From NCBI GenBank assembly GCA_965228775.1, contig OZ245840.1, positions 2,760,434-2,824,433 of the forward strand: DNA of 64,000 bases, given 5' to 3'. Each line of letters starts with the position of its first letter. Within the stretch, counting starts at the first letter, position 1. The stretch comes from Alphaproteobacteria bacterium (GTDB taxonomy: Bacteria; Pseudomonadota; Alphaproteobacteria; JANQMY01). Below are positions 2,566-30,606 of the stretch, one piece after another. The position numbers were made by a program, and so were the translations under genes. The notes beneath the pieces were generated by a model. That model saw only the letters and a list, made by a program, of their open reading frames with translations. It was not told the DNA's origin and did no database searches.

Positions 2566-2871
2566 TCAGACAGTGATGCAGTCCCCAGCGGATATCGGAC
2601 CTTCAATAGGCCGTGAGCGTTGCAGATCCCGCCGTTTACCATCCATGTCAAGCGCGGCCGGCACCCAATCTTCACAGACAACATTAGGCCGGTCTTCATC
2701 CGTCCTCTGATCTTGCGGTTTCTTCCGGTCATCCGCTGCCGCAAAGGCTTGTCCGATCCAAAGCGCCGATATGAGAAGCGTCAGAACACCAATCGTTATG
2801 GGCCCCCGGCGGTCCGGTTTTGGCTTTGCGACGGCAATTGCACGCTGTGTTTTCGTGGATTTCATGGTCAC
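2566..2871 (-). CDS. Hypothetical membrane-anchored protein (N-terminal TM helix, charged C-terminus)
   Basis: GGAGGAGG lies 7 nt upstream of the ATG at 2871. Hydrophobic segment ITIGVLTLLISALWIGQAFAAA. Confidence 0.45.
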   Translation of the reverse strand: MTMKSTKTQRAIAVAKPKPDRRGPITIGVLTLLISALWIGQAFAAADDRKKPQDQRTDEDRPNVVCEDWVPAALDMDGKRRDLQRSRPIEGPISAGDCITV

Positions 2872-3031
2872 CTCCTCCTTGAGCCTGCCCCGTAAATTGG
2901 CAAGGAATTCGAAATCTCAACACGCATCGCGGTTTCCTATTGAAATGTGTGACCTATCCGATTGGCGGGGCGCCCCTATCGACCCCAATTCCCTCACAGT
3001 TAAGCACACGCCCCTCGGGAGGAATGACAAG

Positions 3032-3829
3032 ATGGTCTGGCGATTTCTGAAACATTTTGGCGCCAATAAAGCGGCCAACATATTGGATGATTTCGCAGGT
3101 GCCGTGGTGGCCTTCGACCCTGAAACCGCGAGCCAGACGCAAATCGCCATGATGGAAGAAGAATTGGACCGGCTCGGGCTCCGGCTGTCCGAGGCGGAGG
3201 CGGAGGTGCGCCGCGAACGCGAAGAAACCATTGAGATCGAACACAAATATAACAAGTATCTGGACGCAGCCGGCGTCCTGGAATCGCAGCTGACCGCGGC
3301 GCCAGGTCAAGAAGAGGCCGCGCGGATTGAAACCAGCCTTGGCCGCATCGTCACCCGGCTGGAAGAATTGAAGCCAGAGATCGAGCGCGAGAAACGAGAA
3401 GACCAGGAAGTGGAAGCCTGGAGCCGCGAGCTGCGCTCCGCTTTTGAAGAACTGGCCGCGAAACTGCGTACGGCCCATAAGGACCTTACATCCGCACGCA
3501 GACAAATGGAGATGGCGCAGCTTCAGCGCGACCGCGCACGGGAAGCCAATCGCCGTGCCAAGGAAGCGGCGGGCATGGTCAATTCGATGAATGCCATGAG
3601 CGTGGCCCTTGATAAGATGAACCAGGAAACCAACCGCGCCCGCGCGGAAGCCGAAACCCTAAAGCTTAAGGCGGACTTGTTCCGGACCGATCAGCTGGAT
3701 GACGACCCGCATATCGCCATGGCGTTGTCGAAAGCCAATGCGAACCAGCCATCCGGTGGCGGCTCTCTTTCGGACCGGTTGGCTGCGTTGAAACAGAAGC
3801 CGCCGGCCAAACGGCTGACGGCCGCATAA
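3032..3829 (+). CDS. PspA/IM30-family (phage-shock protein A-like) coiled-coil protein
   Basis: The track ORF 2771-3829 overlaps the upstream gene. The internal ATG at 3032 has GGGAGG 10 nt upstream. The sequence is long heptad-rich coiled coil (EEELDRLGLRLSEAEAEVRREREE...) with a PspA-like N-terminus. Confidence 0.55.
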   Translation: MVWRFLKHFGANKAANILDDFAGAVVAFDPETASQTQIAMMEEELDRLGLRLSEAEAEVRREREETIEIEHKYNKYLDAAGVLESQLTAAPGQEEAARIETSLGRIVTRLEELKPEIEREKREDQEVEAWSRELRSAFEELAAKLRTAHKDLTSARRQMEMAQLQRDRAREANRRAKEAAGMVNSMNAMSVALDKMNQETNRARAEAETLKLKADLFRTDQLDDDPHIAMALSKANANQPSGGGSLSDRLAALKQKPPAKRLTAA

Positions 3830-3977: not shown

Positions 3978-4337
3978 CTAGGACGTCTCCTGCGGGATCG
4001 CGTGATAGTCGCGGTAATAGGCGATCTTCCCGCCCCGCACTTTATAGACGCCCACACCTTCGAACCGCCGTCCGTCCGCATAGACCGCCACCCATTTCGC
4101 CCAGGCCGTTTCGTCGTCGCCTTCAATTTGCTGCACGTCGAAATGAATCCCACGTTTGGGCAGCTCTTCCGCCATTTGCGTCATAAAAGCGGTGATGGCT
4201 TCTTTGCCGTGGAATGACCCCACCGCTTCGTCTTCCGCCACGGCATCATCCGTGAACAGATCAACAAGGCTCACATAGTCTCTGGAATCTTGCTTGTCCC
4301 AAAAAGCTTTGACCGCGTCATAGGCTGCACCTGGCAT
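3978..4337 (-). CDS. SnoaL-like / NTF2-fold (ketosteroid isomerase-like) protein
   Basis: 119 aa, alpha+beta cone signature (FTDDAV...GKEAITAFM...). The size and pattern are typical of SnoaL_2 family proteins. Confidence 0.55.
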   Translation of the reverse strand: MPGAAYDAVKAFWDKQDSRDYVSLVDLFTDDAVAEDEAVGSFHGKEAITAFMTQMAEELPKRGIHFDVQQIEGDDETAWAKWVAVYADGRRFEGVGVYKVRGGKIAYYRDYHAIPQETS

Positions 4338-4380
4338 GGTTTCCTCACATGTTCCATTTAAGAGTAAGTATGGGCTGCTG

Positions 4381-5292
4381 TTAGAGCAACGACCCTAGCA
4401 GATCTCTGGTCCGCGCACGCTCTTCTTTACTGGGTGCGAATTCCGACGCGGCAAAATCTGTCACACCCACATCAGCCAATTCCGCAAGACCGTCCCGCAC
4501 CTGCGCCTCGTCTCCGGCAATCACCAGATCGCCCGGACCGGAAACACCTTCGCGCTCGAACATGGCCTGATAGGACGGCAAAGACACATAGTTCGACAAT
4601 TCTTTCGAGGCCAGCGCGCGCACGTCATCCGGTTTGTCCGTCACGCAGATCGGCAGCGTCGCGATGATGCGGGGCAGGGGGCGCCCGGCCGCACTGGCGG
4701 CATCGCGGATCGTGGGCACGATATGATCGCGGATGGTGCGCGGGCCCACCCAGGCAAGAGTGGTCCCATCCGCCAGCCGGCCCGCAACGCGCAGCGCTTG
4801 TGGACCAAGGGCCGCCACCACCACCGAACATCTCGCGTCCGGCTTTTTGAACAGCGTGGCCGTGCAGGAGATTTCCTCGCCCTGGAAGTCCACAGTGCCG
4901 TCTTCCAACAGCGGCACAAGCACCGACAAATATTCCTTCAGATGACGGATGGGTTTGCCGTATTCGAGGCCAAGCGGCGCCAGCATGGATTGGTGGGAAA
5001 GGCCAATGCCGAGGGTCAGGCGCCCGCCGATCGTATCATTTGTGGTCAGCGCTTGACCCGCCAGCACCATGGGGTGCCGGGGGTAGGTGGGGATCACCGC
5101 CGTGCCAAGCTCTATGCCGGGCGTGGTTTGCCCCGCCAAGGCCAGCACGGTGAGGGCATCAAACCCGCCGGTAATGTGTTCCGCCAGCCAGTAGCTGGCA
5201 AACCCGTCCGCCGCCGCCCTGGCCACATCGTCCGCCACCCGGTCGGGCGATGCAAACCGGACCAATCCGGTACCGTTGATACCTATTTTCAT
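4381..5292 (-). CDS. LLM-class (luciferase-like) flavin/F420-dependent oxidoreductase
   Basis: 303-aa TIM-barrel luciferase-like pattern (MKIGINGTG..., ...GVTDFAASEF...). Confidence 0.7.
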   Translation of the reverse strand: MKIGINGTGLVRFASPDRVADDVARAAADGFASYWLAEHITGGFDALTVLALAGQTTPGIELGTAVIPTYPRHPMVLAGQALTTNDTIGGRLTLGIGLSHQSMLAPLGLEYGKPIRHLKEYLSVLVPLLEDGTVDFQGEEISCTATLFKKPDARCSVVVAALGPQALRVAGRLADGTTLAWVGPRTIRDHIVPTIRDAASAAGRPLPRIIATLPICVTDKPDDVRALASKELSNYVSLPSYQAMFEREGVSGPGDLVIAGDEAQVRDGLAELADVGVTDFAASEFAPSKEERARTRDLLGSLL

Positions 5293-5385
5293 GGGACCTC
5301 TGAGGTGCTGAGATTTTTAGGGAGCTTACCCTATTCGGCCGCACGAGGGATCGCCGAATTCTGAGACCAACCCAAGGGCGAAACT

Positions 5386-5455
5386 TTACGTAAAACGTAA
5401 CTTTTTAGGCGATTTTTATTCATTCGTTGTTCGTATGTAACGCCTATGCTACACT
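5386..5455 (+). promoter_or_regulatory. Palindromic operator (TTACGTAA at 5386-5393, repeated ACGTAA at 5395-5400) plus a sigma70-like promoter (-35 TTGTTC 5427-5432, 17-nt spacer, -10 TACACT 5450-5455)
   Basis: Seen directly: perfect palindrome TTACGTAA followed by an ACGTAA half-site, then a well-spaced -35/-10 pair immediately upstream of the HTH gene. Confidence 0.35.
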
Positions 5456-5491
5456 TTAGGTTTGAGGTGGACAAACACTCGGAGTCGCGAA

Positions 5492-6781
5492 ATGGACTCA
5501 TCATCAGAGCAGAATATGGAGCAGCCTGTTCATGATGCCTCACTCGCTGAGATTCAGGAAGAGACCATTCCTGTCAAAGAATACTTGGCCCGCGAGATGC
5601 TCCGGAAGGGTTTGAAGAAAAGGGAATTGGCCGACGAACTGGGGATCCACCGCCAGACACTCTACAACATCTTATCCGGCAACCGGCGCATCAGTTACAA
5701 GGTGGCGCTCAAGCTTTCTAAGCGCTTCGAGGAACCCGCCGACTTCTGGATGAAGGAAAATGTACGGGTCGCCAGTGGCCCATTAGAGCCAACAAGTGAG
5801 CCGAGAAAAGATAATGCCGCGCAGACGCTCGAGCTTGCCTCGTCGAAACCCATATCAACGTCTCCCCAGATCTTGGTGGATTTTGAGATCGAGGAGGTAA
5901 TAGAAAAAGGCCTTATTCATATCGACCCTTTTGATCCCTCGAACGTCAAGTCAGCCTCTATGGATCTGACGGTTGGGCTTCTGACCCAAAAGCCATTCGA
6001 TGGTGACGATGACCATAAACAAAGTACGGGAAACACCGTCTCACTTAAATCCCAAGAGTCGATCAATATCGTCGTGAAAGAACGCGTGCGGTTTGGAAAG
6101 GACTATTTGGCCCGTGTCGGCCAAATCACTCACAATGCGGCCCGTGGATTGCTCGTGATGCACGGCATCCAAATTGATCCAGGCTATGCGGGCTCATTAC
6201 ACATTCGGGCGGTCAATTTGACCCCGGAAAAGATCTCGATTTCGGTTGGGGACCCCATTCTAAGCCTTGAGATTGTTCGTCTCAGCAAGACCCCTCGAGA
6301 AGCATTTCAGAACCATGAACTGGACAGTATTGAAGGACTTGCCCACAGGATCGAAGAAGCACTGCGTGGTCTTTTTGATGTGACCAAGGGCCCGGACAAT
6401 ACCCTCGCCGCGAGTTGGCCCGAAGCAGAAATCTATACCGATGGCGGAACCAAGATCCAGGCTTTGGATAAGGCGATAAAGACCGTGTGCCGTGAACTTG
6501 AAGGCCTCAAAAAGGATTCGCCGTACATTACAGACGTTATCCGCGCGGAGGTCGCCAAGCGGGCTGGCGAGCTGGTAATAACTGAAGACGATGTTTACAC
6601 GCTGGCTCGCAAAGCTGGCGTACATATTGGACCGAAACTCGACATCGCGATTGCACCTTATACGCAGAACGAAGCCGAATGGCAGCCGCTTGGGCCTACC
6701 TGCCGGCGGCTTGGCCTCAATCTCAACCGAGTGATCCTCGCTTATCTTGGCCGGGAGTCTTGGGCGAATGTCCGAACGTAG
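5492..6781 (+). CDS. Fusion protein: HigA-type XRE helix-turn-helix (HTH) N-terminus, dCTP-deaminase/dUTPase-fold central domain, and an unknown C-terminal domain of about 130 aa
   Basis: HTH: EYLAREMLRKGLKKRELADELGIHRQTLYNILSGNRRISYKVALKLSKRFEEPADFWMK (HigA/VapI antidote pattern). Central region aligns by eye to Dcd motifs (HIDPFDPSNVKSASMDLTVG versus the Dcd N-terminal motif; LVMHGIQIDPGYAGSLHIRAVNL versus Dcd [21 protein letters not shown]). Start ATG at 5492 has GGAG 7 nt upstream; the track start at 5462 would sit inside the -10 box. Coding GC is lower than in neighbouring genes. Confidence 0.75.
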   Translation: MDSSSEQNMEQPVHDASLAEIQEETIPVKEYLAREMLRKGLKKRELADELGIHRQTLYNILSGNRRISYKVALKLSKRFEEPADFWMKENVRVASGPLEPTSEPRKDNAAQTLELASSKPISTSPQILVDFEIEEVIEKGLIHIDPFDPSNVKSASMDLTVGLLTQKPFDGDDDHKQSTGNTVSLKSQESINIVVKERVRFGKDYLARVGQITHNAARGLLVMHGIQIDPGYAGSLHIRAVNLTPEKISISVGDPILSLEIVRLSKTPREAFQNHELDSIEGLAHRIEEALRGLFDVTKGPDNTLAASWPEAEIYTDGGTKIQALDKAIKTVCRELEGLKKDSPYITDVIRAEVAKRAGELVITEDDVYTLARKAGVHIGPKLDIAIAPYTQNEAEWQPLGPTCRRLGLNLNRVILAYLGRESWANVRT

Positions 6782-6828
6782 TCCCAGGCCACCCATAGCC
6801 GGGATATTTCTACATTTTTAAAAGTTAC

Positions 6829-6856
6829 GTCACATGTTGACAATGTGACTTTTTTT
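6829..6856 (+). terminator. Rho-independent terminator (GTCACAT-loop-ATGTGAC followed by TTTTTTT)
   Basis: Seen in sequence 48 nt after the stop of the 5492-6781 gene. Confidence 0.55.
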
Positions 6857-7024
6857 GTTGCACCCAGTTCCTGAGTCGGCTACCCTATAAGTAAGGAGGC
6901 TTGACGGCGTACGCGGCCATGCCGGGGCGCCAATCGGGGACCACCAACAAAACCAAAAATAGCGGATCATCGAAAAGATAGCCTCTCCAGATTCTGAAGT
7001 GCGTGTCACAACTGGAGGCTCGTC

Positions 7025-7267
7025 ATGGTCACACTTCTGATGGCTTTACTTCTTGCACTGGTCGCGGCGCTGGTTTTTGCCGTCGCCCCACAACAAGCAT
7101 TGGATGCCGCGTATGCGGTCGGCGCTTTCTTTGAACCAATCGCATTCGAAACAATGTCCTTTCTCACATCAATGCCAGATTGGCCGTGGCCAATAATCCT
7201 TACAGCCACGTCGACAATCGCAGCGGTCCTTACGCTTCTGCTGGAACTCGTCCGCTTCATGCGGTAG
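7025..7267 (+). CDS. Small two-TM membrane protein, hypothetical
   Basis: GGAGG 8 nt upstream of the ATG. 80 aa with two hydrophobic helices. Confidence 0.45.
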   Translation: MVTLLMALLLALVAALVFAVAPQQALDAAYAVGAFFEPIAFETMSFLTSMPDWPWPIILTATSTIAAVLTLLLELVRFMR

Positions 7268-7456
7268 CAGAGCTGACCTCAAGCATGTCGCCACCGCCAA
7301 CACGCCAGCCGCAAATTGCAAAATTGCATCGCCATGGCAGAGATGTTGAAGCGGTCACAGCCGAATAACAGCGCGCTGCGCGTTTAGGCTTTGGTGTCCA
7401 ACACGGATCACCCCTACCATGCGGGCCAAAACACAATCAAAAAAGGAAGCTGCCCT

Positions 7457-8311
7457 ATGAGTTACGGCCTGATGATCCCCGCCGATTTTTTCACCACCCC
7501 GCAATTGATCGAAATTGCTCAGCAGGCAGAAAAATGTGGCTTTGACAATCTTTGGACATCGGAAATGTTCGGGCGCGATCCCTTCATCACCTGCGCCACG
7601 CTTATCCAGGCCACCAGCACCATTCATGTGGGCACCGCAATCACCAATGTTTATGCGCGCGACGAACGCGCCATCAAGGCCGCCGCCTATTCCTTGTCGG
7701 ACGTGTCCGGCAACCGCTTTGAGCTGGGCTTGGGCGTGTCCAACAAGATGGGCAATGACCAGCGCGGCTTGCCTTGGCTGCCGCCGGTCAAGAAAATGAA
7801 TGCTTTCCTAGACCGTTATGAAAGCACCGACATCATGTTCGAGAACAATGCCGTCGTGCCCAAATATCTCGCCGCCCATGGCCCCAAACTGATGGAGCTT
7901 GCAGGCAAACGCCTTGACGGCGCCTATATTTACATGATGCCGGTGGCCTATTCACGCCAATCCAAGGACCGCATCGGCACGAAGAAACTGCATTTGATGC
8001 AGCCGACGGTTTTCGAAACCGACCCGGCCCTGGCCCGCGAACATGCGCGCCGCGCCGTGTCCATCTATATGCCGCTGGAAAATTATCACCGGGCCTGGCG
8101 CGAAGGCGGCTTTGCCGATGAGGATTTCGCCGATGGCGGCAGCGACAGTTTTATTGACGATCTGATTGCCTGGGGCGATCAAGACAAGATCCTGGAACGC
8201 TACGCCCTGCAGCGGAAAAACGGCGTGGACCAGATCATCATCGGCACGGCCAATTTGAACCTGGCCGATCCGGATACGTGGCAGAAGCTTGGGTCATTAA
8301 TTAAGGGCTGA
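7457..8311 (+). CDS. LLM-class flavin-dependent oxidoreductase (luciferase-like monooxygenase family)
   Basis: AAGGAAG lies upstream of the ATG at 7457 (MSYGLMIPADFF...). Luciferase-like TIM-barrel pattern. Confidence 0.7.
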   Translation: MSYGLMIPADFFTTPQLIEIAQQAEKCGFDNLWTSEMFGRDPFITCATLIQATSTIHVGTAITNVYARDERAIKAAAYSLSDVSGNRFELGLGVSNKMGNDQRGLPWLPPVKKMNAFLDRYESTDIMFENNAVVPKYLAAHGPKLMELAGKRLDGAYIYMMPVAYSRQSKDRIGTKKLHLMQPTVFETDPALAREHARRAVSIYMPLENYHRAWREGGFADEDFADGGSDSFIDDLIAWGDQDKILERYALQRKNGVDQIIIGTANLNLADPDTWQKLGSLIKG

Positions 8312-8379
8312 ATGTCGCCCGCCATCAAGAGTAATTTCAAAAAGGTCTGACCCTTTTGAAATTAGGTGGGTGTCATGAC

Positions 8380-8799
8380 CTATATTTTTTCGATCGTAAA
8401 CGTCGGAATTTGGCGCGGCGCGGCGGTTTTGACGTAACCCGCGAACTGTTCATTTTGTTCGGCCATCTGTGCAACGCGTTTGGCCGCATCCGCCTCCAGC
8501 GCTTCAACGATCCGGCCACGGAAGGTTTCTTCCGCAAGCTCAACCGTAATCTCCGGATTGGCGCGCACATTGTGGACCCATGTGGGATGCTTCTGCGCAC
8601 CCGCATTGGATCCGAACACGCGGCGCGTACCGTCGTCTTCGACGATCAGAACCAGCGGCACTTCCAGCAGGCGCCCGGTCTTCGCGCCGATTGTGTGCAG
8701 AATGACCACGGGCAGGCCGCCAAATTGAGCCACTTTGCCATTATTGGCGCGGAATTCAGCGATGACTTGAGCGTTGAGCGTTTTCCAATCCATGGGCAT
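8380..8799 (-). CDS. Nitroreductase-family deazaflavin-dependent oxidoreductase (DUF385 / PNPOx-like split barrel)
   Basis: Pattern FGGLPVVILHTIGAKTGR...VEDDGTRRVFGSNAGAQKHPTWVHNVRANP is typical of DUF385. AAAGGA lies upstream of the internal ATG. Confidence 0.65.
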   Translation of the reverse strand: MPMDWKTLNAQVIAEFRANNGKVAQFGGLPVVILHTIGAKTGRLLEVPLVLIVEDDGTRRVFGSNAGAQKHPTWVHNVRANPEITVELAEETFRGRIVEALEADAAKRVAQMAEQNEQFAGYVKTAAPRQIPTFTIEKI

Positions 8800-8882
8800 G
8801 TCCTTTAAATCTTTTTGAAAATGCATAGCGCGGATCGCATGGCCATGCCAATTCCAAACTGAACGCCCGCTAGATTTCGTGC

Positions 8883-10511
8883 TTAAGCGAGGTCGACGCC
8901 GCGATAATGATCCTCTGCGGCTTTTCTCAAATACGATGTGTATTTCGGCCCGGTCCCAAAATAGGCTTGATAGCGCACTTTGCCCACTTCGCGTCCGGCC
9001 ACGTTTGAATTGTAACCGGTGAACCAGCCCTGGCTTCGGCGCAGCAACAGCCCGTCATAGGTCTTCTTGACCACATCCTGCCATTCCTGCTCCGCATCTG
9101 CGTCCGCTTCAATCCGCGTCACGCCGTTTTCGATGGCGTGGCTCACAAGGCCGGTAACCCAATTGACGCCGTTTTCAATGGCGCGGGGATAGTTGGTGGA
9201 ACCGGAAGCGCTTTGCGGGCCGGCCACCATCAACATGTTCGGGAAGCCACGGGTGAGGATACCCAAATAGGTGCTGGGCCCATCGCGCCATTTGTCCGCC
9301 AGCAGATCGCCATTGGTGCCGCGAATGGTCAACCGGTCGAAGGCGCCGGTCACCGCATCGAACCCCGTGGCATAGACGATCACGTCTAGATCGAAATGGC
9401 CTTCGGACGTTTGAATGCCGGTGGGCGTGATGCGCTCGATCGGCGTTTCCGTTATGTCGACGAGCGTTACATTATCTCTGTTGTACACTTCGAAGTAACG
9501 CGTTTCGAGCGGCAAGCGCTGCGTGCCGAAGCCATGGTCTTTCGGGATAAGTTTTTCCGCCACCTCGGGGTCGTGAACGCGCTGGCGAATGCGGTTTGCA
9601 ACATAGTCGGAGATTTCCCGGTTGGCTTCTTCATCGATGAAGATTTCGCGGAAATTCCCTGCAAGCAGCGCGAACCCCGGCGTGTCGTAAAGCTTGTCCC
9701 ACAAAGCGATCCGTTCTTCCTTCGTCACATTCCAGAAGCCCCGCCGGTCAGGCACATGCTCGAAGCCGCCCGGCGATTTCGCGCAATTGGCAAAAATCTC
9801 GTCGTACCGGCTGCGTATATCCGCCATTTCCTCTTTTGAGATTGGCGCATTATTGAGCGGCGTGCTCCAATTCGGACGGCGCTGGAAAACCGTCAGCTCA
9901 CTGACTTTATCCGCAATCTCGGCAATGACTTGAATGCCCGTGGCGCCGGTGCCGACCACACCCACGCGCTTGCCCTCCAGAGAAACCGGTTCCTTCGGCC
10001 ACCAATACGTATGAAACGCCTCACCTTCGAAATCATCCATGCCCTTCAAACGTGGCGGCGTCGGCACGGACAGAACACCGATGCCAGTGATCACGAAACG
10101 GGATCTATACGTCTCACCATTTTCAAGATCGATCTGCCACTGGCGCGCATCTTCATCCCAGGTCATGGCCTGGACGCGTGCGTTAAACCGCATATGGCGC
10201 CGAAGGCTGAACTTGTCAGCCACATAGTTCAGATATCGGAGGTTTTCCGGCTGGGGCGAAAAACGTTCCGTCCAATGCCATTCGTCCAGCACTTCTTGCG
10301 AGAAGGAATAGCCATAGGTGTAGCTTTCGGAATCGAAGCGTGCCCCGGGGTAGCGGTTGCGATACCACGTGCCGCCCAGATCTTCGTCGCCTTCCAGCAC
10401 AATGGCATTCACGCCCAGATCGGTCAGCCGCTTGATTTGATAAATGCCGGCGACGCCCGCCCCGACGACAATGACCTCAAATTCCTGCGTGTCCGCCATA
10501 ATGATACTCAT
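8883..10511 (-). CDS. Baeyer-Villiger (type I flavin-containing) monooxygenase
   Basis: Rossmann motif VVGAGVAGI and the BVMO fingerprint FEGEAFHTYWWP, plus a second GxGxxG (VVGTGATGIQ). The start may be the M5 codon at 10499. Confidence 0.8.
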   Translation of the reverse strand: MSIIMADTQEFEVIVVGAGVAGIYQIKRLTDLGVNAIVLEGDEDLGGTWYRNRYPGARFDSESYTYGYSFSQEVLDEWHWTERFSPQPENLRYLNYVADKFSLRRHMRFNARVQAMTWDEDARQWQIDLENGETYRSRFVITGIGVLSVPTPPRLKGMDDFEGEAFHTYWWPKEPVSLEGKRVGVVGTGATGIQVIAEIADKVSELTVFQRRPNWSTPLNNAPISKEEMADIRSRYDEIFANCAKSPGGFEHVPDRRGFWNVTKEERIALWDKLYDTPGFALLAGNFREIFIDEEANREISDYVANRIRQRVHDPEVAEKLIPKDHGFGTQRLPLETRYFEVYNRDNVTLVDITETPIERITPTGIQTSEGHFDLDVIVYATGFDAVTGAFDRLTIRGTNGDLLADKWRDGPSTYLGILTRGFPNMLMVAGPQSASGSTNYPRAIENGVNWVTGLVSHAIENGVTRIEADADAEQEWQDVVKKTYDGLLLRRSQGWFTGYNSNVAGREVGKVRYQAYFGTGPKYTSYLRKAAEDHYRGVDLA

Positions 10512-10553
10512 TCCTTAGACCAATTGGCCTTAGACCAATCGGTGTTTCCGCCG

Positions 10554-11162
10554 TTACCCCAGCTCTAGAACACCCTCAATGGCTTCATCAAGGGTCGCGT
10601 CGGGATTGGCCTGCTGATAGGCACCATGCATCCACAGATTGGCAAGCCCGTAGACAGCCGCCCACAAAGACGCCGCCAGGAGTTTTGCTTCCATGTGAGG
10701 CTTCCATCCTTTGGCCTGCGCGTGCTTTACGAAGCGGTTAAAGCCTTCGGTCGCGGCGCGGGATTCGCGCCGCAGCGCCTCGTTATTGTGGCGCAATGTG
10801 CTGGTGCGGATGATCAGGGAAAACAGGCCCGGATGTTCAAGCGCGCAATGGACATACGCCCGGGCCGTGGCAATCAGAGGCGCCTTCGGATCGTCTGTGT
10901 CGCGCACCTGCGCCATGGCGCCGGACACCGCCTCGGACACGATTCTGTATCCCACCGCCGCCACTTCCGCCTTGAGGTCATCCAGATTGTCGAAATGCCG
11001 GGCGGGCGCCCCGTGGGAAACCCCAGCGCCGCGCGCCACGGCCCGCAATGTGAGTGCCTCGATGCCTTCTCGCTCCAGAATCTCTAAGGCCACCGACACA
11101 AGCCGGGCGCGCAGGCCATCTCCCCCCATCGAAGAAGGTTTTGTAACAAGGATTGCTTCCAT
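10554..11162 (-). CDS. TetR/AcrR-family transcriptional regulator
   Basis: N-terminal HTH LRARLVSVALEILEREGIEALTLRAVARGAGVSHGAPARHF is classic TetR_N. Confidence 0.8.
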   Translation of the reverse strand: MEAILVTKPSSMGGDGLRARLVSVALEILEREGIEALTLRAVARGAGVSHGAPARHFDNLDDLKAEVAAVGYRIVSEAVSGAMAQVRDTDDPKAPLIATARAYVHCALEHPGLFSLIIRTSTLRHNNEALRRESRAATEGFNRFVKHAQAKGWKPHMEAKLLAASLWAAVYGLANLWMHGAYQQANPDATLDEAIEGVLELG

Positions 11163-11200
11163 GTTGACACTGTCTACAGAGTTGAGTAGACAGTGTCAAC
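11163..11200. promoter_or_regulatory. Perfect 15-bp inverted repeat GTTGACACTGTCTAC-N8-GTAGACAGTGTCAAC in the divergent tetR/P450 intergenic region; probable TetR operator
   Basis: Seen directly. It abuts the tetR start codon and lies 36 nt upstream of the P450 start. Confidence 0.55.
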
Positions 11201-11235
11201 AACGTTGGAACCCAAGGCAAAAGGAAAGTTCGTCC

Positions 11236-12561
11236 ATGGGAGAACATGTTCGCGAGATTGTGCTGGAACGGCCAATCCCCAGCTACCGCAAACCTGCGCG
11301 GCCCTATTACCTGGAGCAGAACGCAACCGTCCCGCCCGCCGAAGATTTGGACCTGGAGACACTGGATCTGGTGGATGTGGAAGTCTGGCGGCAGGACAAA
11401 ATGTGGGACCGTTTCGCCCGCCTGCGCCGGGAAGACCCGCTGCATTGGACGCCCGAAAGCGTGACGGGCCCCTATTGGTCCGTGACACGCTACCAAGATG
11501 TGATGGCGATCGATACGGATCACACCCGTTTTTCGTCGGATGGCAAATATGGCGGCATCGTCCTGGGTCCGCCGGCGGATGGGTTTGATGCCACCAGCTT
11601 CATCACCTCCGACGAGCCGGTGCATTCCGAGCAGCGCAAGACGGTGCAACCCGGCGTCGCGCCAAACATGTTGCAAGCCTATGAGCCATTGATCCGTGAA
11701 CGGACGCAACGCGTGCTCGACAATCTGCCGGTGGGCGTGCCGTTTGACTGGGTAGACGCGGTTTCGATCGAACTTACCGCCATGATGCTGGCTACATTGC
11801 TGCACTACCCGCAGGAAAACCGCCGCCAGCTGACCCGCTGGTCCGACGTGACCACCAACCCCTTCGACAAAGATATCTGCCCCGGTGGGCGCGAGCAGTG
11901 GCTTCAGGAAATGGGTAATTGCCTCAAAACCTTCTCTGCCATTTTCGAAGAACGCAAAACGGCCGAGCCCGGCAATGATCTGCTGAGCCTGCTGGCCCAT
12001 GGCCCCGCCACGCGCAACCTCGACACCCAAGGCCTGCTGGGCAACACGCTGCTGCTGATCGTGGGCGGCAACGACACCACGCGCAACACCATGTCGGGCG
12101 GCCTTTATGCATTGAACAAATATCCCGGCGAATACGCCAAGCTGAAGGCAAACCCGGATCTCATTCCCAACATGGTATCGGAAATGATCCGCTGGCAGAC
12201 GCCGCTGGCCTATATGCGCCGCACCGCCCTGGAAGATGTGCCCTTGCATGGCAAGACCATCAAGAAGGGCGACCAGATCGCCATGTGGTACATTTCCGCC
12301 AACCGCGACGAAACCTTCTGGGAAGAAGACCCCAACCGGCTCATCATCGACCGCAAACAAGCCCGCAATCACATGTCGTTCGGCTTCGGTATTCACCGTT
12401 GCGTGGGCAACCGTATTGCCGAATTGCAATTGCGGATTTTGTGGGAAGAGCTGTTGCAGCGCTTCGACCATGTGGAAGTGGTGGACCAGCCGAACTTCGT
12501 CGCTAGTTCCTTCGTGCACGGATATACGTGGCTGCCGGTCATCTGCCATCCGAAGGGATGA
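11236..12561 (+). CDS. Cytochrome P450 monooxygenase (possibly CYP153-like)
   Basis: Heme-binding loop FGFGIHRCVGNRIAE and the EXXR region. The 616-aa track ORF (10711-12561) is truncated to the ATG at 11236, which has AAGGAAAG upstream; the longer frame overlaps tetR. Confidence 0.85.
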   Translation: MGEHVREIVLERPIPSYRKPARPYYLEQNATVPPAEDLDLETLDLVDVEVWRQDKMWDRFARLRREDPLHWTPESVTGPYWSVTRYQDVMAIDTDHTRFSSDGKYGGIVLGPPADGFDATSFITSDEPVHSEQRKTVQPGVAPNMLQAYEPLIRERTQRVLDNLPVGVPFDWVDAVSIELTAMMLATLLHYPQENRRQLTRWSDVTTNPFDKDICPGGREQWLQEMGNCLKTFSAIFEERKTAEPGNDLLSLLAHGPATRNLDTQGLLGNTLLLIVGGNDTTRNTMSGGLYALNKYPGEYAKLKANPDLIPNMVSEMIRWQTPLAYMRRTALEDVPLHGKTIKKGDQIAMWYISANRDETFWEEDPNRLIIDRKQARNHMSFGFGIHRCVGNRIAELQLRILWEELLQRFDHVEVVDQPNFVASSFVHGYTWLPVICHPKG

Positions 12562-12845
12562 CGGTTAAGTCGGAAGAGAATCTATCAGCCGTCATCACGA
12601 GGAGCGCTTGCGCGACGACGTGATCCAGAGCAGCTTGCTCAGCGTGAGTGGCCCTGGATCGCCGCGCTGGCTAGGCACCAATCAAGAAACTTTTGCACAA
12701 CCTGGCCGATACGTAGCAGATCTGCATGACGCTACGTAATTTGCAACGCTGAAGGGGTTGGCGGGGCCGCTTCGGAATGAGAAAATACGCCCAACCAGAC
12801 ACCACTTTGGCGCGGCGACACACGTCGCAGGAAAGGCACAGTCTC

Positions 12846-14207
12846 ATGTCCACACAGCTGAAAAATTGGCCCGAACAGGAAACCCGCGGCACCCGCATTC
12901 CCGGATACCGCTATACGTCGCGGGAGTTTTTCGAGAAAGAATGGGAAGGCATGTGGACGAAGGTCTGGCTGTTGCTGGGCCGGGAATCCGAACTGCCTAA
13001 TCCCGGCGATTGGCAGATGGAAGAGGTGGGCCCGGAAGAAATTCTGATGGTGCGCCAGACCGACGGCAGCGTGAAGGCGTTCTACAATGTATGCCAGCAC
13101 CGCGGAAACCCGCTGGTGGACGAGAAGAAAGGCCATGTGCTTCGGAACTTTGTCTGCAAGTATCATTCCTGGTCCTTCATGCTGGACGGGGCGCTGAAAT
13201 TTGCTCCGGACAAGGAAGATTTTCCGGAAGGCAATCCGTGCGGCAAAGTGCGCTTGGAAGAATTGCGCTGTGAAACCTTCGCCGGCTTTATCTGGGTCAA
13301 TATGGACCCCCATTGCGGCAGCCTGAGACAATTCCTCGGCCCCATCTGGGACGAATGGGAAGCCCGCGAAGTGCACACTTGGACACGCACCATGGCCAAC
13401 ACCATGTGGCTGCCTTGCAATTGGAAAGTGGTGCTGGACAATTTCAATGAAAGCTATCACGTGCCCACGGTGCACATGCAGGCAACGCCCGAAACCGACC
13501 GCACCAAAGTAAGCGCGAACATCAACACCTATTACAAGGAAACGCGCTTCGACCTGTCCGACGAAGGCCATAACCGCATGGTGATGAAGGGCGGCTATGG
13601 CAATGGCCAAACCGACCGGGACGGCAACATCACGGAACCCCATGCAAGCCTATTGCGCTATTGGGACATTGACCCGGCCGACTTCAAGGGCCGCCCGGAA
13701 GCCACCCGCCAGGCGCTGCAAGAAGCGAAACGCAGGCTAGGCCCCGGCCGAGGATACACCCATTATGCCAATGTACCGGACGACCAGCTGACGGATGCGT
13801 TCCACTACACCCTGTTTCCGAACTTTGCGGTTTCTCTGTGGTCGGACGGTTTTCATTTCTTACGCGCCCGGCCCCATTACAATGACCCGGAACAATGCCT
13901 GTTCGACAATTGGTGGTATGCAAGCCCGGCATCTTTGAACGAAACCTTTGTTCAGCCTTCCGCCAATATGGGCGAGACGACGCCCGGCATGGACGATGTG
14001 GACGTCAACCTGATGACCTATCCCGAAGGGTTTATCGGCCCGGCCATTGACGAAGACGTGGATGTGTTCGTCACCCAGCAACGGGGCTTCCGCTCGCGCG
14101 GCTTTAAGGGCGTCTATCTTTCCGGCCAGGAAAAACGCATCCGCCGCTATCACGAGCTGATCGACGATCACATCGAAGCCAATACCGGCGCCATCTTCGA
14201 GGATTGA
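12846..14207 (+). CDS. Rieske [2Fe-2S] non-heme iron oxygenase, alpha (catalytic) subunit
   Basis: Rieske motif CQHRG...CKYHSW and the mononuclear iron region. Start ATG at 12846 (MSTQLKNWPE) has AGGAAAGG upstream. Confidence 0.8.
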   Translation: MSTQLKNWPEQETRGTRIPGYRYTSREFFEKEWEGMWTKVWLLLGRESELPNPGDWQMEEVGPEEILMVRQTDGSVKAFYNVCQHRGNPLVDEKKGHVLRNFVCKYHSWSFMLDGALKFAPDKEDFPEGNPCGKVRLEELRCETFAGFIWVNMDPHCGSLRQFLGPIWDEWEAREVHTWTRTMANTMWLPCNWKVVLDNFNESYHVPTVHMQATPETDRTKVSANINTYYKETRFDLSDEGHNRMVMKGGYGNGQTDRDGNITEPHASLLRYWDIDPADFKGRPEATRQALQEAKRRLGPGRGYTHYANVPDDQLTDAFHYTLFPNFAVSLWSDGFHFLRARPHYNDPEQCLFDNWWYASPASLNETFVQPSANMGETTPGMDDVDVNLMTYPEGFIGPAIDEDVDVFVTQQRGFRSRGFKGVYLSGQEKRIRRYHELIDDHIEANTGAIFED

Positions 14208-17764: not shown

Positions 17765-20500
17765 ATGGACCCCGAAGCCCAGGCCAGACTGAAGATAGAC
17801 GAATTGCTCGAAGCGGCTGGTTGGCTCTTGCAGGACCGGCCTGATTTCGATCGTACTGCGGCTTTGGGTGTCGCTGTTCGCGAATTCGCTCTCGGTCAAG
17901 ATCAAGCCGACTATCTGCTTTTCGTAGAGGGCAAAGCCGCTGGCGTTATCGAGGCCAAAAAGGCGGGCATCACCCTCTCAGGTGTCGCCGAGCAATCCGA
18001 TAAATATATGACGCGCCTGCCCGAGCATCTCGCCAAATGGCAGGAATCACTCGTCTTCGATTACGAGAGCACGGGCGAAGAAACCTTGTTCAAGGACATG
18101 CGCGATCCACATCCACGCTCGCGCCGCGTTTTCGCCTTTCATCGCCCGGAAACACTGCTCACATGGCTGAAGGCCGACCAATCTCTACGCACAAAGCTCG
18201 CCCAAATGCCACCGCTTGACCCGACCGGCTTGCGCGATTGCCAAGTCGACGCCATTGAAGGCTTAGAAAAGTCTCTTGCCGAAGCGCGGCCCCGCGCCTT
18301 GATCCAAATGGCAACAGGCGCTGGCAAAACATTTACAGCTTGCTCTTTTTCTTGGCGGCTTCTGAAACATGCTGGCGCAAAACGCATATTGTTTCTGGTC
18401 GACCGCTCTAATCTCGGCCGACAAACCCTCAAAGAATTCCAGGAATTTGAACCAACGGGTGCCGGCCATCTGTTTACAGACATTTACATCACCCAGCTTC
18501 TGCGATCTGCCGGCCTCGATAAAGATGCGAAGGTCGTCATCACCACCATACAGCGCCTCTATTCGATGCTGCGCGGCGAAGAACTAGATGAAACAGTAGA
18601 GGAAAAATCAGGCTTTGAGACATGGGAACAAGAAGACGGCGAAGTCAAACCCGTGCCCTATAACCCAGAAATCCCGATTGAAACTTTTGATGTGATCATC
18701 ACAGATGAATGCCATCGCTCCATCTATGGTCTCTGGCGGCAGGTCCTTGATTATTTTGATGCCTTTATTGTCGGCCTCACCGCGACCCCAACCAAGCACA
18801 CGCTGGGGTTTTTCAACCAAAATCTCGTAGCGGAATATCCTTACGACAGATCGGTGGTCGACAAAGTCAATGTGGGTTTTGAAATTTACCGCATTCGTAC
18901 CCGCGTGGGCGAAAGCGGTGGCGTGATTGATAAGGGCTACCAAGTGCCGGTGCGGGACAAACGCACCCGCACCACCCGCTATCGCGAATTGGACGACGAT
19001 CTTAACTACGCAGCACGGGAACTTGACCGATCCGTCACCGCAAAAAACCAGATCCGCACCGTTCTTGAAGCCTATCGTGCCAGTCTGTTTACAGATCTTT
19101 TTCCGGGCCGCACCGGCGAGTGGGTGCCCAAAACACTGATCTTCGCAAAAGATGATAACCATGCGGAGGAAATTGTCACCTCCGTGCGAGAGGTCTTCGG
19201 CAAAGGAAATGAGTTTGCAAAGAAGATCACCTATAAAACCAGCGAAGATCCTCAAGCGCTGATCAAGGCATTCCGTGTGGATGCCATGCCCCGCATCGCT
19301 GTCACGGTTGATATGATCGCCACAGGCACAGACATTAAGCCCGTCGAAGTTGTTATCTTTATGCGGGATGTGAAATCCGAAGGCTATTTCGAACAAATGA
19401 AAGGGCGGGGTGTGCGCACCATTCGCGATGCGGATTTGGCGCAAGTGACACCCGACGCCAAAACCAAAACCCGTTTCGTGTTGATTGATGCTGTGGGCGT
19501 GACGGAAAGCGCCAAGTCTGCTTCTCAACCCCTAGAGCGCAAACACTACACAGGTTTTGACAAGCTGCTCGAACAAATCGCCCAAGGCAGGCGGGATGAA
19601 GATGCCATATCGTCATTGGCCGGGCGCCTTGCGGCCCTGGATAACAAATTGGACCGCGAAGATCACACCCGCATTACCGAGGCCACAGGCGGCAAAACCT
19701 TGCGTGACCTCGCCAACAGCCTGCTCGATTCCATCGATCCAGACCAAATTGAGGCGAAAGTCGGCCCTGTCGCATCCGAGACTGCACGGAAGGAAGCGGC
19801 AGAACGCCTCCAGGAAGAGGCGTGCAAACCCTTTAACAACCCCGCCACCCGACGCTTGTTGATCGACTTGAAAACCAAAGCCGATATTGTGATTGACGAA
19901 ATCACCACCGATGAAGTTCTCAATGCCAGCTTTGATTTGCGCGAAGCCGAAAAACGCATCACCAGCTTCAAAACCTTCATGGATGAAAATAAGGATGAGC
20001 TGACAGCCCTGCAGATTCTCTACAATCAACCAGTTGGTCGGCAACGATTGACCTACGCCCAATTGAAAGAGCTGGCAGCCCGCTTGTCCGACCCGCCCCA
20101 TTTCTTGACCACAGCAGATGTGTGGCAAGCCTATCGACGGCTGGAAGAAGCCAAAGTGCGCGGGGTGCCCGCCGACAAACTACTGACGGAAATTGTCGCT
20201 TTGGTGCGATTCACCCTGGGGCAAATTGACCTGCTGGAGCCAATTTCCCTTCAAGTGGAACGCCGATTCAATTTATGGATTGGACGACAGAAAAAAGCAG
20301 GTGTGGCCTACACACCGGAACAGATGGAATGGCTCATGCTCATCCGGGATCATATAGCCGCCAATGCGGAAATCGCAGCTGGGGACCTCATGCAAAACCC
20401 CGCCTTTGCGGATCGCGGCGGCGTGGTCAAAGCGCGCGAATTGTTCGGGACGAGCCTAACAAACCTGCTGGATGACCTCACCAAGGCACTGGTCGCGTGA
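17765..20500 (+). CDS. hsdR: Type I restriction enzyme R subunit (HsdR)
   Basis: HsdR-like N-terminus, helicase motif I QMATGAGKT, DEAH box IITDECHRS, and later helicase motifs. The stop overlaps the hsdS start. Confidence 0.85.
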   Translation: MDPEAQARLKIDELLEAAGWLLQDRPDFDRTAALGVAVREFALGQDQADYLLFVEGKAAGVIEAKKAGITLSGVAEQSDKYMTRLPEHLAKWQESLVFDYESTGEETLFKDMRDPHPRSRRVFAFHRPETLLTWLKADQSLRTKLAQMPPLDPTGLRDCQVDAIEGLEKSLAEARPRALIQMATGAGKTFTACSFSWRLLKHAGAKRILFLVDRSNLGRQTLKEFQEFEPTGAGHLFTDIYITQLLRSAGLDKDAKVVITTIQRLYSMLRGEELDETVEEKSGFETWEQEDGEVKPVPYNPEIPIETFDVIITDECHRSIYGLWRQVLDYFDAFIVGLTATPTKHTLGFFNQNLVAEYPYDRSVVDKVNVGFEIYRIRTRVGESGGVIDKGYQVPVRDKRTRTTRYRELDDDLNYAARELDRSVTAKNQIRTVLEAYRASLFTDLFPGRTGEWVPKTLIFAKDDNHAEEIVTSVREVFGKGNEFAKKITYKTSEDPQALIKAFRVDAMPRIAVTVDMIATGTDIKPVEVVIFMRDVKSEGYFEQMKGRGVRTIRDADLAQVTPDAKTKTRFVLIDAVGVTESAKSASQPLERKHYTGFDKLLEQIAQGRRDEDAISSLAGRLAALDNKLDREDHTRITEATGGKTLRDLANSLLDSIDPDQIEAKVGPVASETARKEAAERLQEEACKPFNNPATRRLLIDLKTKADIVIDEITTDEVLNASFDLREAEKRITSFKTFMDENKDELTALQILYNQPVGRQRLTYAQLKELAARLSDPPHFLTTADVWQAYRRLEEAKVRGVPADKLLTEIVALVRFTLGQIDLLEPISLQVERRFNLWIGRQKKAGVAYTPEQMEWLMLIRDHIAANAEIAAGDLMQNPAFADRGGVVKARELFGTSLTNLLDDLTKALVA

Positions 20501-22083
20501 GTGAGGCAAGCACGACACTTCCCATTGAGTTTTCTGAATCAGTAGTTTCACAAGAAACCACACCCGTCGGCTGGACTACAGCCAATTTAGGAGAAGTCGG
20601 CGTTTGGACTGGTGGCGGCACACCGAGCAAACGTAACGACGCCTTCTGGATCAACGGCAAAATCCCATGGATCTCCCCGAAAGACATGAAGTCCTTTGAG
20701 ATCTCACGCAGTCAAGATTTTATAACTGGCGAGGCGATTGAAAAATCATCGGCCAAGCTAATCAAGGCAAGTTCCGTTTTGATGGTAACGAGATCGGGAA
20801 TCTTGCAACACACCTTTCCTGTAGGAGTGAATAGTATCGAGGTCGCGGTCAATCAGGATTTAAAGGCAATCACTCCTCACACCGGCATAAATGAGAAGTA
20901 CGTTGCGTGGTACCTAGTTGCCAACAACAATAAAATACTCGCCAACTGTTCTAAAGACGGCACTACCGTACAGAGCGTCGACACAGATCAGCTTAAGTCT
21001 CTTCAAATACCAATAGCTCCGCATAAAGAACAAAATCGCATCGTTTCGAAGATCGACGAACTCTTCAGCGACATCGAAGCCGGAGAGCGGGCATTGGCGC
21101 GGGCGCGGGTTGCGTTGGAACGCTATCGCAAATCTGTCTTGAAAGCAGCTGTAATCGGCGAACTCACCAAAGACTGGCGTGAGGCAAACAAAAACAAGCT
21201 GGAACCCGCCGACAAATTGCTCGAACGCATTCTTGCTGCCCGCCGCACCGCTTGGGAAGAAGCCGAACTGGCCAAAATGAAAGCCAAAGGCAAAACACCC
21301 AAAGACGATAAATGGAAGAAGAAATACAAGCCACCCGAAGATCCTGTATTTAGCTTTCTCAGGATCGTTCCGAATGAATGGGCAGCCGGACGAATTGACC
21401 TATTCGGAGAGGTCCAACTCGGTCGTCAACGAGCACCAAAACACCACACTGGTGATCACATGCGTCCCTACCTTCGTGTTGCAAATGTCTTTGAAGAGAG
21501 AATTGACACGAGCGATGTGAAAGAAATGAACTTCACTCCTAAAGAGTATGAAAACTATAAACTCCATAGAGGTGACATTTTGTTGAACGAAGGGCAAAGC
21601 GCTGAATTGGTTGGACGCCCAGCGATCTACAATGATGAGGTACCTGGCGCCTGTTTTACCAACACGCTCGTCCGCTACAGAGTATTTGAAAATCTGACCG
21701 TCGACTTCGCAATGCTCCTGTTTCGGCATTTTATGCACTCGGGTCATTTTACAAAAATCGCAAGAATTACCACAAACATCGCACACCTTGGTACAGACAG
21801 ATTCGCCTCCATGAAGATTCCATGTCCATCAGCACCTGAACAGTTAGAAATTGTTTCGCGGGCAACTGAAGCATTTAGCAAAACCAATCACATCGAAGCA
21901 GCACTCGATAAACAAGAACGCAAGTCCAAGGCGCTTCGTCAATCCATTTTGAAATCGGCCTTTGAAGGACGCCTCGTTCCCCAAGACATCAGTGATGAAC
22001 CAGCCAGCGTTCTTCTAGAACGTCTAAAACAGAACGCAAAACCCATTACAAAGAACAAGAAGAAAAGAAAGAACACCAAGTGA
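20497..22083 (+). CDS. hsdS: Type I restriction-modification specificity subunit (HsdS), two target-recognition domains
   Basis: AT-rich gene with two TRD-like halves separated and followed by conserved coiled-coil repeats (LERYRKSVLKAAVIGELT... / LRQSILKSAFEGRLV). Overlaps both neighbours by 4 nt. Confidence 0.8.
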   Translation: MSEASTTLPIEFSESVVSQETTPVGWTTANLGEVGVWTGGGTPSKRNDAFWINGKIPWISPKDMKSFEISRSQDFITGEAIEKSSAKLIKASSVLMVTRSGILQHTFPVGVNSIEVAVNQDLKAITPHTGINEKYVAWYLVANNNKILANCSKDGTTVQSVDTDQLKSLQIPIAPHKEQNRIVSKIDELFSDIEAGERALARARVALERYRKSVLKAAVIGELTKDWREANKNKLEPADKLLERILAARRTAWEEAELAKMKAKGKTPKDDKWKKKYKPPEDPVFSFLRIVPNEWAAGRIDLFGEVQLGRQRAPKHHTGDHMRPYLRVANVFEERIDTSDVKEMNFTPKEYENYKLHRGDILLNEGQSAELVGRPAIYNDEVPGACFTNTLVRYRVFENLTVDFAMLLFRHFMHSGHFTKIARITTNIAHLGTDRFASMKIPCPSAPEQLEIVSRATEAFSKTNHIEAALDKQERKSKALRQSILKSAFEGRLVPQDISDEPASVLLERLKQNAKPITKNKKKRKNTK

Positions 22084-28755: not shown

Positions 28756-29221
28756 TACAAGGACTCCTGGATACAATTCTGTTTGCGGCGGACACATCGC
28801 ACGTGGTTAGGAAATCGCTCCCATGATCGGCGAATCCCGTTAGAATTTTCTCTGGATTGATTGCATGACAGTCTCACGCGAACGAATTCGCCGCGATTCG
28901 CGGCGCGACGAACGATGAGGCAAGACGGGCCAGCTATTGGTCCAGTGGACCAATCACGCCTTTAGCCGCCCAGGACCCTAAAGCGTTCCGGGCTGTCTCC
29001 TTCTTTCCATGCTCACGCGTCGCAAGATTGAGAGGGATTGCAGCGTATCTGCGGCATTTCACCAAACACGCCAAAGAGCAGAATTGGTTCGCTGTACACT
29101 GAGTTTTACATTTCCCTTTTGCCAAGCCGAAGGATTGAAAAGGAACTCGGTTCGGCCTAGGGCGAAACTCTCGTCGCAAAATTGATGATTTCCGGCACCC
29201 AGATGATGCGTCTAAAGAGGG

Positions 29222-30531: not shown

Positions 30532-30606
30532 TGGAGCGGGCGATGAGATTCGAACTCACGACCCCAACCTTGGCAAGGTTGTGCTCTACCCCTGAGCTAC
30601 GCCCGC
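30532..30606 (-). tRNA. tRNA-Gly (anticodon GCC), CCA encoded
   Basis: Hand-folded cloverleaf: acceptor GCGGGCG/CGCCCGC, D-arm GCTC-AGGGGTA-GAGC, anticodon stem CAACC/GGTTG with loop TTGCCAA, T-arm GTGAG-TTCGAAT-CTCAT, discriminator T, CCA. Confidence 0.9.

Follow-up and report, generated by a model that had tools for sequence, protein, structure and literature searches.

The window analysed here is a 64,000-nt stretch of contig OZ245840.1 (positions 2,760,434–2,824,433 of the forward strand) from an Alphaproteobacteria bacterium (assembly GCA_965228775.1), and all coordinates below refer to it. At 5492–6781 on the plus strand the window contains a gene, recognised from the list of open reading frames (ORFs) and a Pfam match, whose 429-aa product joins a helix-turn-helix (HTH) domain of the HigA/XRE type, a beta-barrel of the dCTP-deaminase/dUTPase fold and a C-terminal domain. 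The longest possible ORF begins with a TTG codon at position 5462 and would give 439 aa; the ATG codon at 5492, which gives 429 aa, has a Shine–Dalgarno-like GGAG, read from the sequence, 7 nt ahead of it (5480–5483, plus strand), and the stop codon is located at 6779–6781. An identical copy of the 429-aa protein is on record once at NCBI. The flanking genes, which are divergent, encode luciferase-like monooxygenases (4381–5292, minus strand; 7391–8311, plus strand), and no ORF was found in the 199-nt gap upstream of the gene. The GC content of the gene is 52.5%, and its GC content at third codon positions (GC3) is 0.588, against a window median of 0.666 with a standard deviation of 0.062. A lower GC content than that of the flanks had been noted in the initial annotation; relative to the window the difference is only about 1.3 standard deviations of GC3.

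The single chain was modelled with AlphaFold2 using an alignment of 54 family members, and the mean predicted local distance difference test score (pLDDT) was 89.5. The model comprised the HTH at residues 23–94 (pLDDT above 94), the beta-barrel at residues 125–263 and an alpha/beta-plus-helical C-terminal domain at residues 275–429. The limits of the HTH domain (residues 23–94; 5558–5773, plus strand) rest on this model together with the matches to HTH_3, TIGR02607 and Protein Data Bank (PDB) profiles. HTH_3 from Pfam covered residues 35–85 with an E-value of 2e-10 and 41 bits against a gathering threshold of 23, which places an XRE-type HTH above the family threshold, and the score for HigA TIGR02607 from NCBIfam was 44.6 bits, slightly under the cut-off of 47.7. 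When the family profile was compared with the PDB, its HTH part matched the HigA-/XRE-type entries 6f8h, 6jpi, 3cec and 2eby at 1e-14 to 1e-13 and HigA structures at 1e-10 to 1e-14. In models and structures alike, the N-terminal domain resembles the antitoxin-type XRE HTH proteins HigA, VapI and YbaQ. Unlike HigA, the protein is four times longer, and no HigB/RelE-type toxin gene adjoins it among the ORFs of the window. A HigBA-type toxin–antitoxin pair was rejected, a toxin ORF being absent from the window and from the homologue loci. The HTH is followed by a low-complexity linker (residues 95–124; 5774–5863, plus strand), which is predicted to be disordered, with pLDDT below 50 at residues 104–118, and which varies in length and sequence in the family alignment.

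The barrel occupies residues 125–268 (5864–6295, plus strand) and was identified with Pfam DCD, PDB profile matches, Foldseek and the statistics of alignment columns, which also showed that it is catalytically degenerate. Pfam DCD (PF22769) matched residues 127–258 with 37.9 bits against a gathering score of 27, and dCTP_deam TIGR02274 from NCBIfam gave 46.6 bits, below its equivalog cut-off of 92.8. The family profile found the PDB entries 9ln0 and 8y1w at 2e-25, the Dcd:Dut of M. tuberculosis at 1e-23 and the Dcd of E. coli at 1e-18. A Foldseek comparison of the AlphaFold2 model with the PDB returned Dcd, Dcd:Dut and dUTPase structures, including 4a6a, 2qlp and 1xs1, with E-values of about 1e-11 to 1e-10. 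The by-eye assignment in the initial annotation, a HigA-type HTH head on a Dcd/dUTPase fold in a protein of 429 aa, is therefore correct, since the Pfam, Foldseek and PDB profile matches agree.

The closest matches to the barrel were archaeal Dcd-like dUTPases, namely Pyrococcus P45 (9ln0) and that of Thermococcus pacificus (8y1w), with TM-scores to the target of 0.78–0.80 (0.80 for 8y1w). These enzymes likewise have no Glu at the deaminase position and carry the xDPG[WFY]xG loop and the motif I Asp; unlike the protein studied here, they contain the R-S-S-L-A-R motif and are single-domain proteins of about 155 aa with neither an HTH nor the C-terminal domain. The Dcd and Dcd:Dut enzymes (E. 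coli 1xs1; M. tuberculosis 2qlp and 4a6a) have the same fold, and homology to them extends from the Dcd N-terminus, with its ILVD motif, to the end of the barrel. Differences from Dcd are the replacement of Glu138 by Arg239, the missing equivalents of Arg110 and Arg115, and the sub-cut-off TIGR02274 score.

The C-terminal domain (residues 275–429, 155 aa; 6314–6778, plus strand, delimited from the model) consists of an alpha-beta3-alpha subdomain followed by a five-helix bundle. When it was modelled by itself, a long helix, three strands, a helix and then five helices were obtained with a pLDDT of 92.8 and a predicted template modelling score (pTM) of 0.85. Searches of Pfam, PHROGs and PDB profiles revealed nothing similar to this domain, and nothing was found in BFVD at E ≤ 0.001. 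The earlier statement that the C-terminal part has no recognisable match was upheld, and its length, previously put at roughly 130 aa, was corrected to about 155 aa. A second copy of the N-terminal HTH among the C-terminal helices was discarded as an explanation, since hhalign showed no similarity. The first half of the domain also occurs in a few relatives that lack the HTH. Judging from the alignment, the domain begins where catalytic enzymes carry the arm that closes the active site of the neighbouring subunit.

Catalytic and ligand-binding positions were mapped using HMMER alignments to solved Dcd/dUTPase chains together with column counts for 54 aligned full-length members and 128 HTH-fused representatives. 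Both motifs that had been picked out by eye were confirmed by profile alignment to Dcd: MDLTVG is at residues 157–162 and HGIQIDPGYAGSLHIRAVN at residues 224–242. The position of the deaminase Glu (Glu138 of E. coli Dcd) is taken by Arg239, and in the family it is occupied by S, T, C or R; Glu was found there in 0/54 members and 0/128 representatives, so the suspicion that the catalytic Glu is missing and the domain non-catalytic or re-purposed held for the whole clade. Where E. coli Dcd and the archaeal dUTPases have R-S-S-L-A-R as motif II, this protein has I-T-H-N-A-A. Accordingly, the phosphate-binding residues R110, S111 and R115 (E. coli Dcd numbering) correspond to Ile212, Thr213 and Ala217, and the Arg110-equivalent is basic in only one of the 54 members and six of the 128 representatives.

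The rest of the pocket is retained. Asp158 of motif I and the pair Asp229-Pro230 do not vary, all 54 members have F or Y at residue 232 (Tyr232 here), Gln227 is present in 50 of them, and Gly231, Ser156, Gly225 and Asn242 are nearly invariant, while the mean column identity of the family alignment is only 25%. In the Dut/Dcd superfamily, the xDPG[FYW] loop grips the 3'-OH of the deoxyribose and stacks on the sugar. Because the deaminase Glu is absent, the motif II Arg is nearly always absent and the Q-x-D-P-G-[FY] loop is kept, the fused barrel is most likely a pseudoenzyme retained for binding and not for catalysis. An active dCTP deaminase or dUTPase was ruled out on the residue analysis.

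A separate Dcd-like clade without the HTH was also observed. Its members are 220–300 aa long, carry Q-x-D-P-G and are usually solo genes; they were found in genomes of many phyla (L033–L071) and on 10 IMG/VR viral contigs (L072–L081). These relatives retain the phosphate-binding R/K-S...R, also without the deaminase Glu, in place of which G, S, T or A is found. Since R/K-S...R is kept and the Glu is absent, they look like working enzymes and probably represent a dUTPase type that carries an extension at the C-terminus. Because they keep R/K-S...R, it is in the HTH-fused clade that the phosphate clamp was lost, as a derived trait. A split arrangement of HTH and DCD was seen in only 2 of 45 HTH-less loci: in L035 (901–2109) a small HigA-like HTH gene is located directly upstream of a DCD-plus-C-terminal-domain gene, and in L047 (10004–11389) the DCD gene is followed, after 430 nt, by an HTH gene in convergent orientation.

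To evaluate the extent of the family, an exhaustive profile search was performed against 1.84 billion cluster representatives. It gave 431 matches at E ≤ 1e-10 and 79 at E ≤ 1e-30; a word-indexed search found one relative only. The 154 proteins that were retrieved included 64 with the HTH, DCD and C-terminal domain (340–487 aa) and 64 with the HTH and DCD, some of the latter being complete short forms such as the 237-aa P0002. Each of the 54 full-length members in the alignment matched Pfam DCD, the best E-value being 1.5e-20. A pattern-seeded scan of one genome per species (185,579 species) yielded 23 copies of full length, almost all of them from Alphaproteobacteria. Sphingomonas, Pontixanthobacter, Hyphomicrobiales and Pseudolabrys, Acetobacteraceae, Paracoccaceae and Caulobacterales were among the groups represented. 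The genome from which the window comes is not among the scan matches, and the 24 loci analysed are these 23 copies plus the window. The protein of the window shares 26–35% identity with the 23 scan copies, and 38% and 35% with the two best metagenomic representatives. Neither 72,556 plasmids nor 50,697 phage genomes contained a full-length copy. A full-text search found no description of an HTH–DCD fusion in the literature, and the sole source name found for a relative was 'addiction module HigA family antidote'. Public databases appear to label these proteins by the HTH only, and the family is therefore effectively invisible at present.

All these characteristics (the HigA/XRE-type HTH, the degenerate barrel with a conserved pocket, the additional C-terminal domain) allow us to propose, with moderate confidence, that the protein is a stand-alone one-component regulator in which a dead Dcd/dUTPase-fold barrel senses a pyrimidine deoxynucleotide or related ligand and the C-terminal domain serves for coupling and output. 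The N-terminal HTH would bind DNA, and its putative regulon would probably include its own promoter region. The barrel, a pseudoenzyme with its Q-x-D-P-G-[FY] loop kept for deoxyribose/pyrimidine recognition, most likely assembles into a trimer or hexamer, as is usual for the fold, and would bind a pyrimidine deoxynucleotide or a related ligand as the signal. Ligand occupancy would be coupled to the output by the family-specific C-terminal domain, which starts at the position of the active-site arm. The option of a nucleotide-sensing repressor, already raised in the initial annotation, thus remains the best reading. It is also favoured by the lack of a conserved partner gene in the 24 loci, by neighbours that are mostly housekeeping genes and, in the Pseudolabrys-type clade, by vertical inheritance behind hslVU and a conserved block upstream of the gene. 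Both the domain architecture and the degeneration of the active site throughout the clade are well established and unusual, and from them we infer the function. As an XRE one-component regulator, the protein would stand out by a pseudo-dUTPase sensor domain without precedent and by its new C-terminal domain.

A functional precedent is provided by the staphylococcal phage dUTPase–Stl system (3zf3 and 5nyz, both among the Foldseek matches), in which the nucleotide state of a trimeric dUTPase-fold protein controls an HTH repressor. The fold can therefore switch an HTH repressor in trans, which is a precedent for the sensor reading by analogy and not by homology. Unlike the protein described here, Dut in that system is active, is a separate polypeptide and binds the repressor, whereas here a degenerate barrel and the HTH form one polypeptide chain, which is not homologous to Stl. 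By the same analogy, dUTPase–repressor signalling might be fused in cis: a dead trimer would read dUTP, dTTP, or hydroxymethylated dCTP or dUTP and would switch the HTH on or off DNA via the C-terminal domain. This more specific version is tentative, and we regard it as rather unlikely; if it were true, Alphaproteobacteria would have a regulator dedicated to sensing infection or the deoxynucleotide pools. To our knowledge, such a deoxynucleotide sensor has no counterpart among described regulators such as NrdR.

If the proposed function is correct, the dCTP-deaminase/dUTPase fold would have been recruited as a non-catalytic sensor of a transcription factor, giving a new class of one-component regulator, and a new domain of 155 aa would be defined. 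The protein would also be a natural covalent counterpart to the debated idea that staphylococcal phage dUTPases act as signalling switches, and it would offer a handle on how some bacteria monitor pyrimidine deoxynucleotide pools or recognise aberrant phage nucleotides.

Several observations weigh against this proposal. The Arg115-equivalent is basic in 30 of the 54 members, and residual nucleotide hydrolysis may persist in some of them. A conflict-related gene would likewise account for the fast divergence and the scattered occurrence (24 loci). In addition, the evidence for an operator is not distinguishable from chance. A near-palindrome, AAACTTTACGT-AAA-ACGTAACTTTT, is located at 5381–5405 and may serve the HTH of the protein as an operator; its arms match at 9/11 positions, its core TTACGTAA is at 5386–5393, and an ACGTAA half-site is present beside TTACGTAA. 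The palindrome and half-site described in the initial annotation do exist; however, the 25-nt near-palindrome does not exceed chance, since 229 of 2000 shuffled versions of the 199-nt intergenic sequence contained one as good, and a family-wide test for upstream palindromes was negative (Fisher p = 0.64). Attractive upstream sites were seen in several homologues, for example TCCAACAATTGTTGGA in L003 and TGTCCAAAAAAATTGGACA in L010. Autoregulation is a reasonable expectation for a protein of the XRE/HigA type, and it is not evident from the sequence.

Three other explanations were considered. In the first, the protein would be a phage- or stress-sensing defence or abortive-infection switch, a cis-fused analogue of Dut–Stl. 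The HTH, the C-terminal domain or both would respond once the pseudo-dUTPase pocket had detected either a phage protein directed against Dut/Dcd or a deoxynucleotide signal specific to infection (dUTP, hydroxymethylated dCTP or dUTP, or an unbalanced pool). The rare and patchy distribution and the rapid sequence divergence noted above are consistent with this, as are the HTH-less relatives on the 10 viral contigs, the GC3 of the gene mildly below that of its surroundings and a Type I restriction–modification system 11 kb away. In two Paracoccaceae-type loci of 23 (L010, tRNA at 9794–9870, and L015) the family gene is located immediately downstream of tRNA-Arg(CCT), and in L015 this tRNA gene is duplicated (6065–6141 and 9567–9643, about 3.4 kb apart), which suggests the integration of an island. 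A few homologue loci also lie beside SspH, TIR or mad genes: among 119 neighbour proteins analysed with Pfam and PADLOC, eight PADLOC models, of which two were SspH, four TIR-type and the others mad8 and mad2, found a single protein each.

Most of these neighbours are, however, housekeeping proteins (HslVU, MltA, transaldolase, enzymes dependent on pyridoxal phosphate), no clear enrichment of defence islands was detected among the homologue loci, and the genes flanking the family gene in the window are metabolic. The protein of the window itself gave only matches of its HTH region in PADLOC-DB v2 (RmrA N-terminus and HTH_VI, E ≥ 9e-5), and it has no recognisable effector domain. Copies on plasmids and phages are lacking, and one clade shows stable synteny. 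In Hyphomicrobiales of the Pseudolabrys type, the family gene is located directly 3' of hslV–hslU, the sole recurrent neighbour, which recurs within this clade only. The pairwise identity of the family proteins there (45–77%) tracks that of HslU (80–96%), and the fixed locus therefore indicates vertical inheritance with fast divergence. We consider such a switch possible but unlikely.

The module for nucleotide-depletion defence or addiction that had been suggested initially fares worse. It is contradicted by the loss of the catalytic and phosphate-binding residues, by the HTH-only PADLOC matches and by the lack of a partner gene, as well as by the survey of homologues, with few defence genes among the 119 neighbours, no plasmid or phage copies and a vertically inherited hslVU clade. 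No conserved partner gene was found when the neighbours of 24 full-length and 37 HTH-less loci were clustered. The conceptual link that had been suggested to nucleotide-depletion defence enzymes, namely AvcD-type dCTP deaminase and dGTPase, was a dNTP-metabolising fold encoded by a stand-alone gene. Unlike the protein of the window, these enzymes are active and have unrelated folds (zinc cytidine deaminase and HD domain, respectively), whereas here the site is degenerate and PADLOC gave no match beyond the HTH. The remark that known dCTP-deaminase defence proteins use the zinc cytidine-deaminase fold agrees with established knowledge.

In the second explanation, the protein would be an ordinary repressor whose barrel has lost all ligand function and serves as an oligomerisation scaffold only. 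The phosphate-binding and catalytic residues are indeed lost, and solved structures show the Dcd/dUTPase fold as an obligate trimer. However, the residues that line the pocket (Ser156, Asp158, Gly225, Gln227, Asp229-Pro-Gly-[FY] and Asn242) are invariant or nearly so in a family of otherwise low identity. Such conservation is unexpected for a pure scaffold, which is therefore disfavoured, and we judge this explanation improbable.

The third explanation, a catalytically active nucleotide-depleting toxin or defence enzyme (a dCTP deaminase or dUTP/dCTP pyrophosphatase) combined with its own HigA-type antitoxin or autorepressor, is very improbable: the HTH scores near the TIGR02607 cut-off, the Asp residues of motifs I and III are kept and one split version with a small HTH gene directly upstream is known (L035), but the deaminase Glu is missing from every fused member and the motif II Arg from nearly all, the Arg115-equivalent is Ala here, TIGR02274 gives half of the bits of its cut-off (46.6 against 92.8), and there is neither a PADLOC match nor a HigB-like neighbour.

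As for other candidate signals around the gene, a consensus scan found no sigma70-like promoter upstream of it on the plus strand, contrary to what had been annotated, and the best candidate by eye, TTGTTC-N17-TACACT, has 7 of 12 consensus matches. Downstream, the hairpin GTCACAT-GTTGACA-ATGTGAC followed by T7 (6829–6856, plus strand) is a modest candidate for an intrinsic terminator. It had been called strong; the hairpin is present but not strong, its stem has 7 bp, three of them G-C, and its energy of -12.6 kcal/mol (z = -1.08 against shuffles) does not exceed chance. No riboswitch or small RNA was found in the flanks of the gene using Rfam. In Pseudolabrys-type loci (L014, L016, L018, L023, L025, L026, L028 and L029), a conserved non-coding block, (G/C)TGACAAA-N6-(G/A)TTTAC-N14-CGC(A/C)AT(A/G)AA, was found 3' of hslU and about 60–110 nt upstream of the family gene; it is likely to be the promoter or operator of the family gene in this clade.

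An exact second copy of the half-site ACGTAACTTTT is located at 6820–6830 on the minus strand, just ahead of the terminator hairpin and inverted relative to that at 5395–5405. The gene is thus flanked by a perfect 11-nt inverted repeat, ACGTAACTTTT / AAAAGTTACGT, which may be a second half-operator, a relic of an insertion or a chance occurrence. Transposon ends were rejected as an explanation: the repeat is short, no longer repeat is present, and the frequency across loci is near a rough estimate of chance, k-mers of at least 10 nt common to the upstream and downstream flanks being found in 3 of 24 loci where that estimate predicts about 1.6. In L032 and L020, an upstream motif is repeated downstream of the family gene.

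Several other features were noted in the homologue loci and in the window. The two tRNA-associated loci L010 and L015 have two downstream genes in common, which encode proteins of about 240 and 220 aa with no assigned function. Between the terminator and the next monooxygenase gene of the window there is an 80-aa, strongly hydrophobic ORF (7025–7267, plus strand) that starts with MVTLLMALLLALVAALVFAV, has a GGAGG-N6-ATG start and is without a Pfam match; it was rejected as a small membrane-protein partner, since it has no counterpart beside the family homologues. A 352-aa protein that is rich in charged coiled-coil sequence is encoded at 2771–3829 (plus strand) and has no Pfam match. The same is true of a 935-aa ORF at 25990–28797 (minus strand), which is located about 1.7 kb from tRNA-Gly(GCC) (30532–30606), the sole tRNA gene of the window; a short-chain dehydrogenase gene lies between them.

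The genes around the finding (3978–14207) include those for a SnoaL-like protein, the two luciferase-like monooxygenases and an F420H2-dependent quinone reductase, and further members of this redox cluster are a Baeyer–Villiger-type flavin monooxygenase, a TetR protein and a Rieske oxygenase. This content suggests an F420-linked catabolic island. The Type I restriction–modification operon is complete and occupies 17765–23525, about 11 kb downstream. It comprises hsdR (ResIII and EcoEI_R_C), hsdS (Methylase_S) and hsdM (N6_Mtase), and its GC3 of 0.49–0.65 is below the window median of 0.67.

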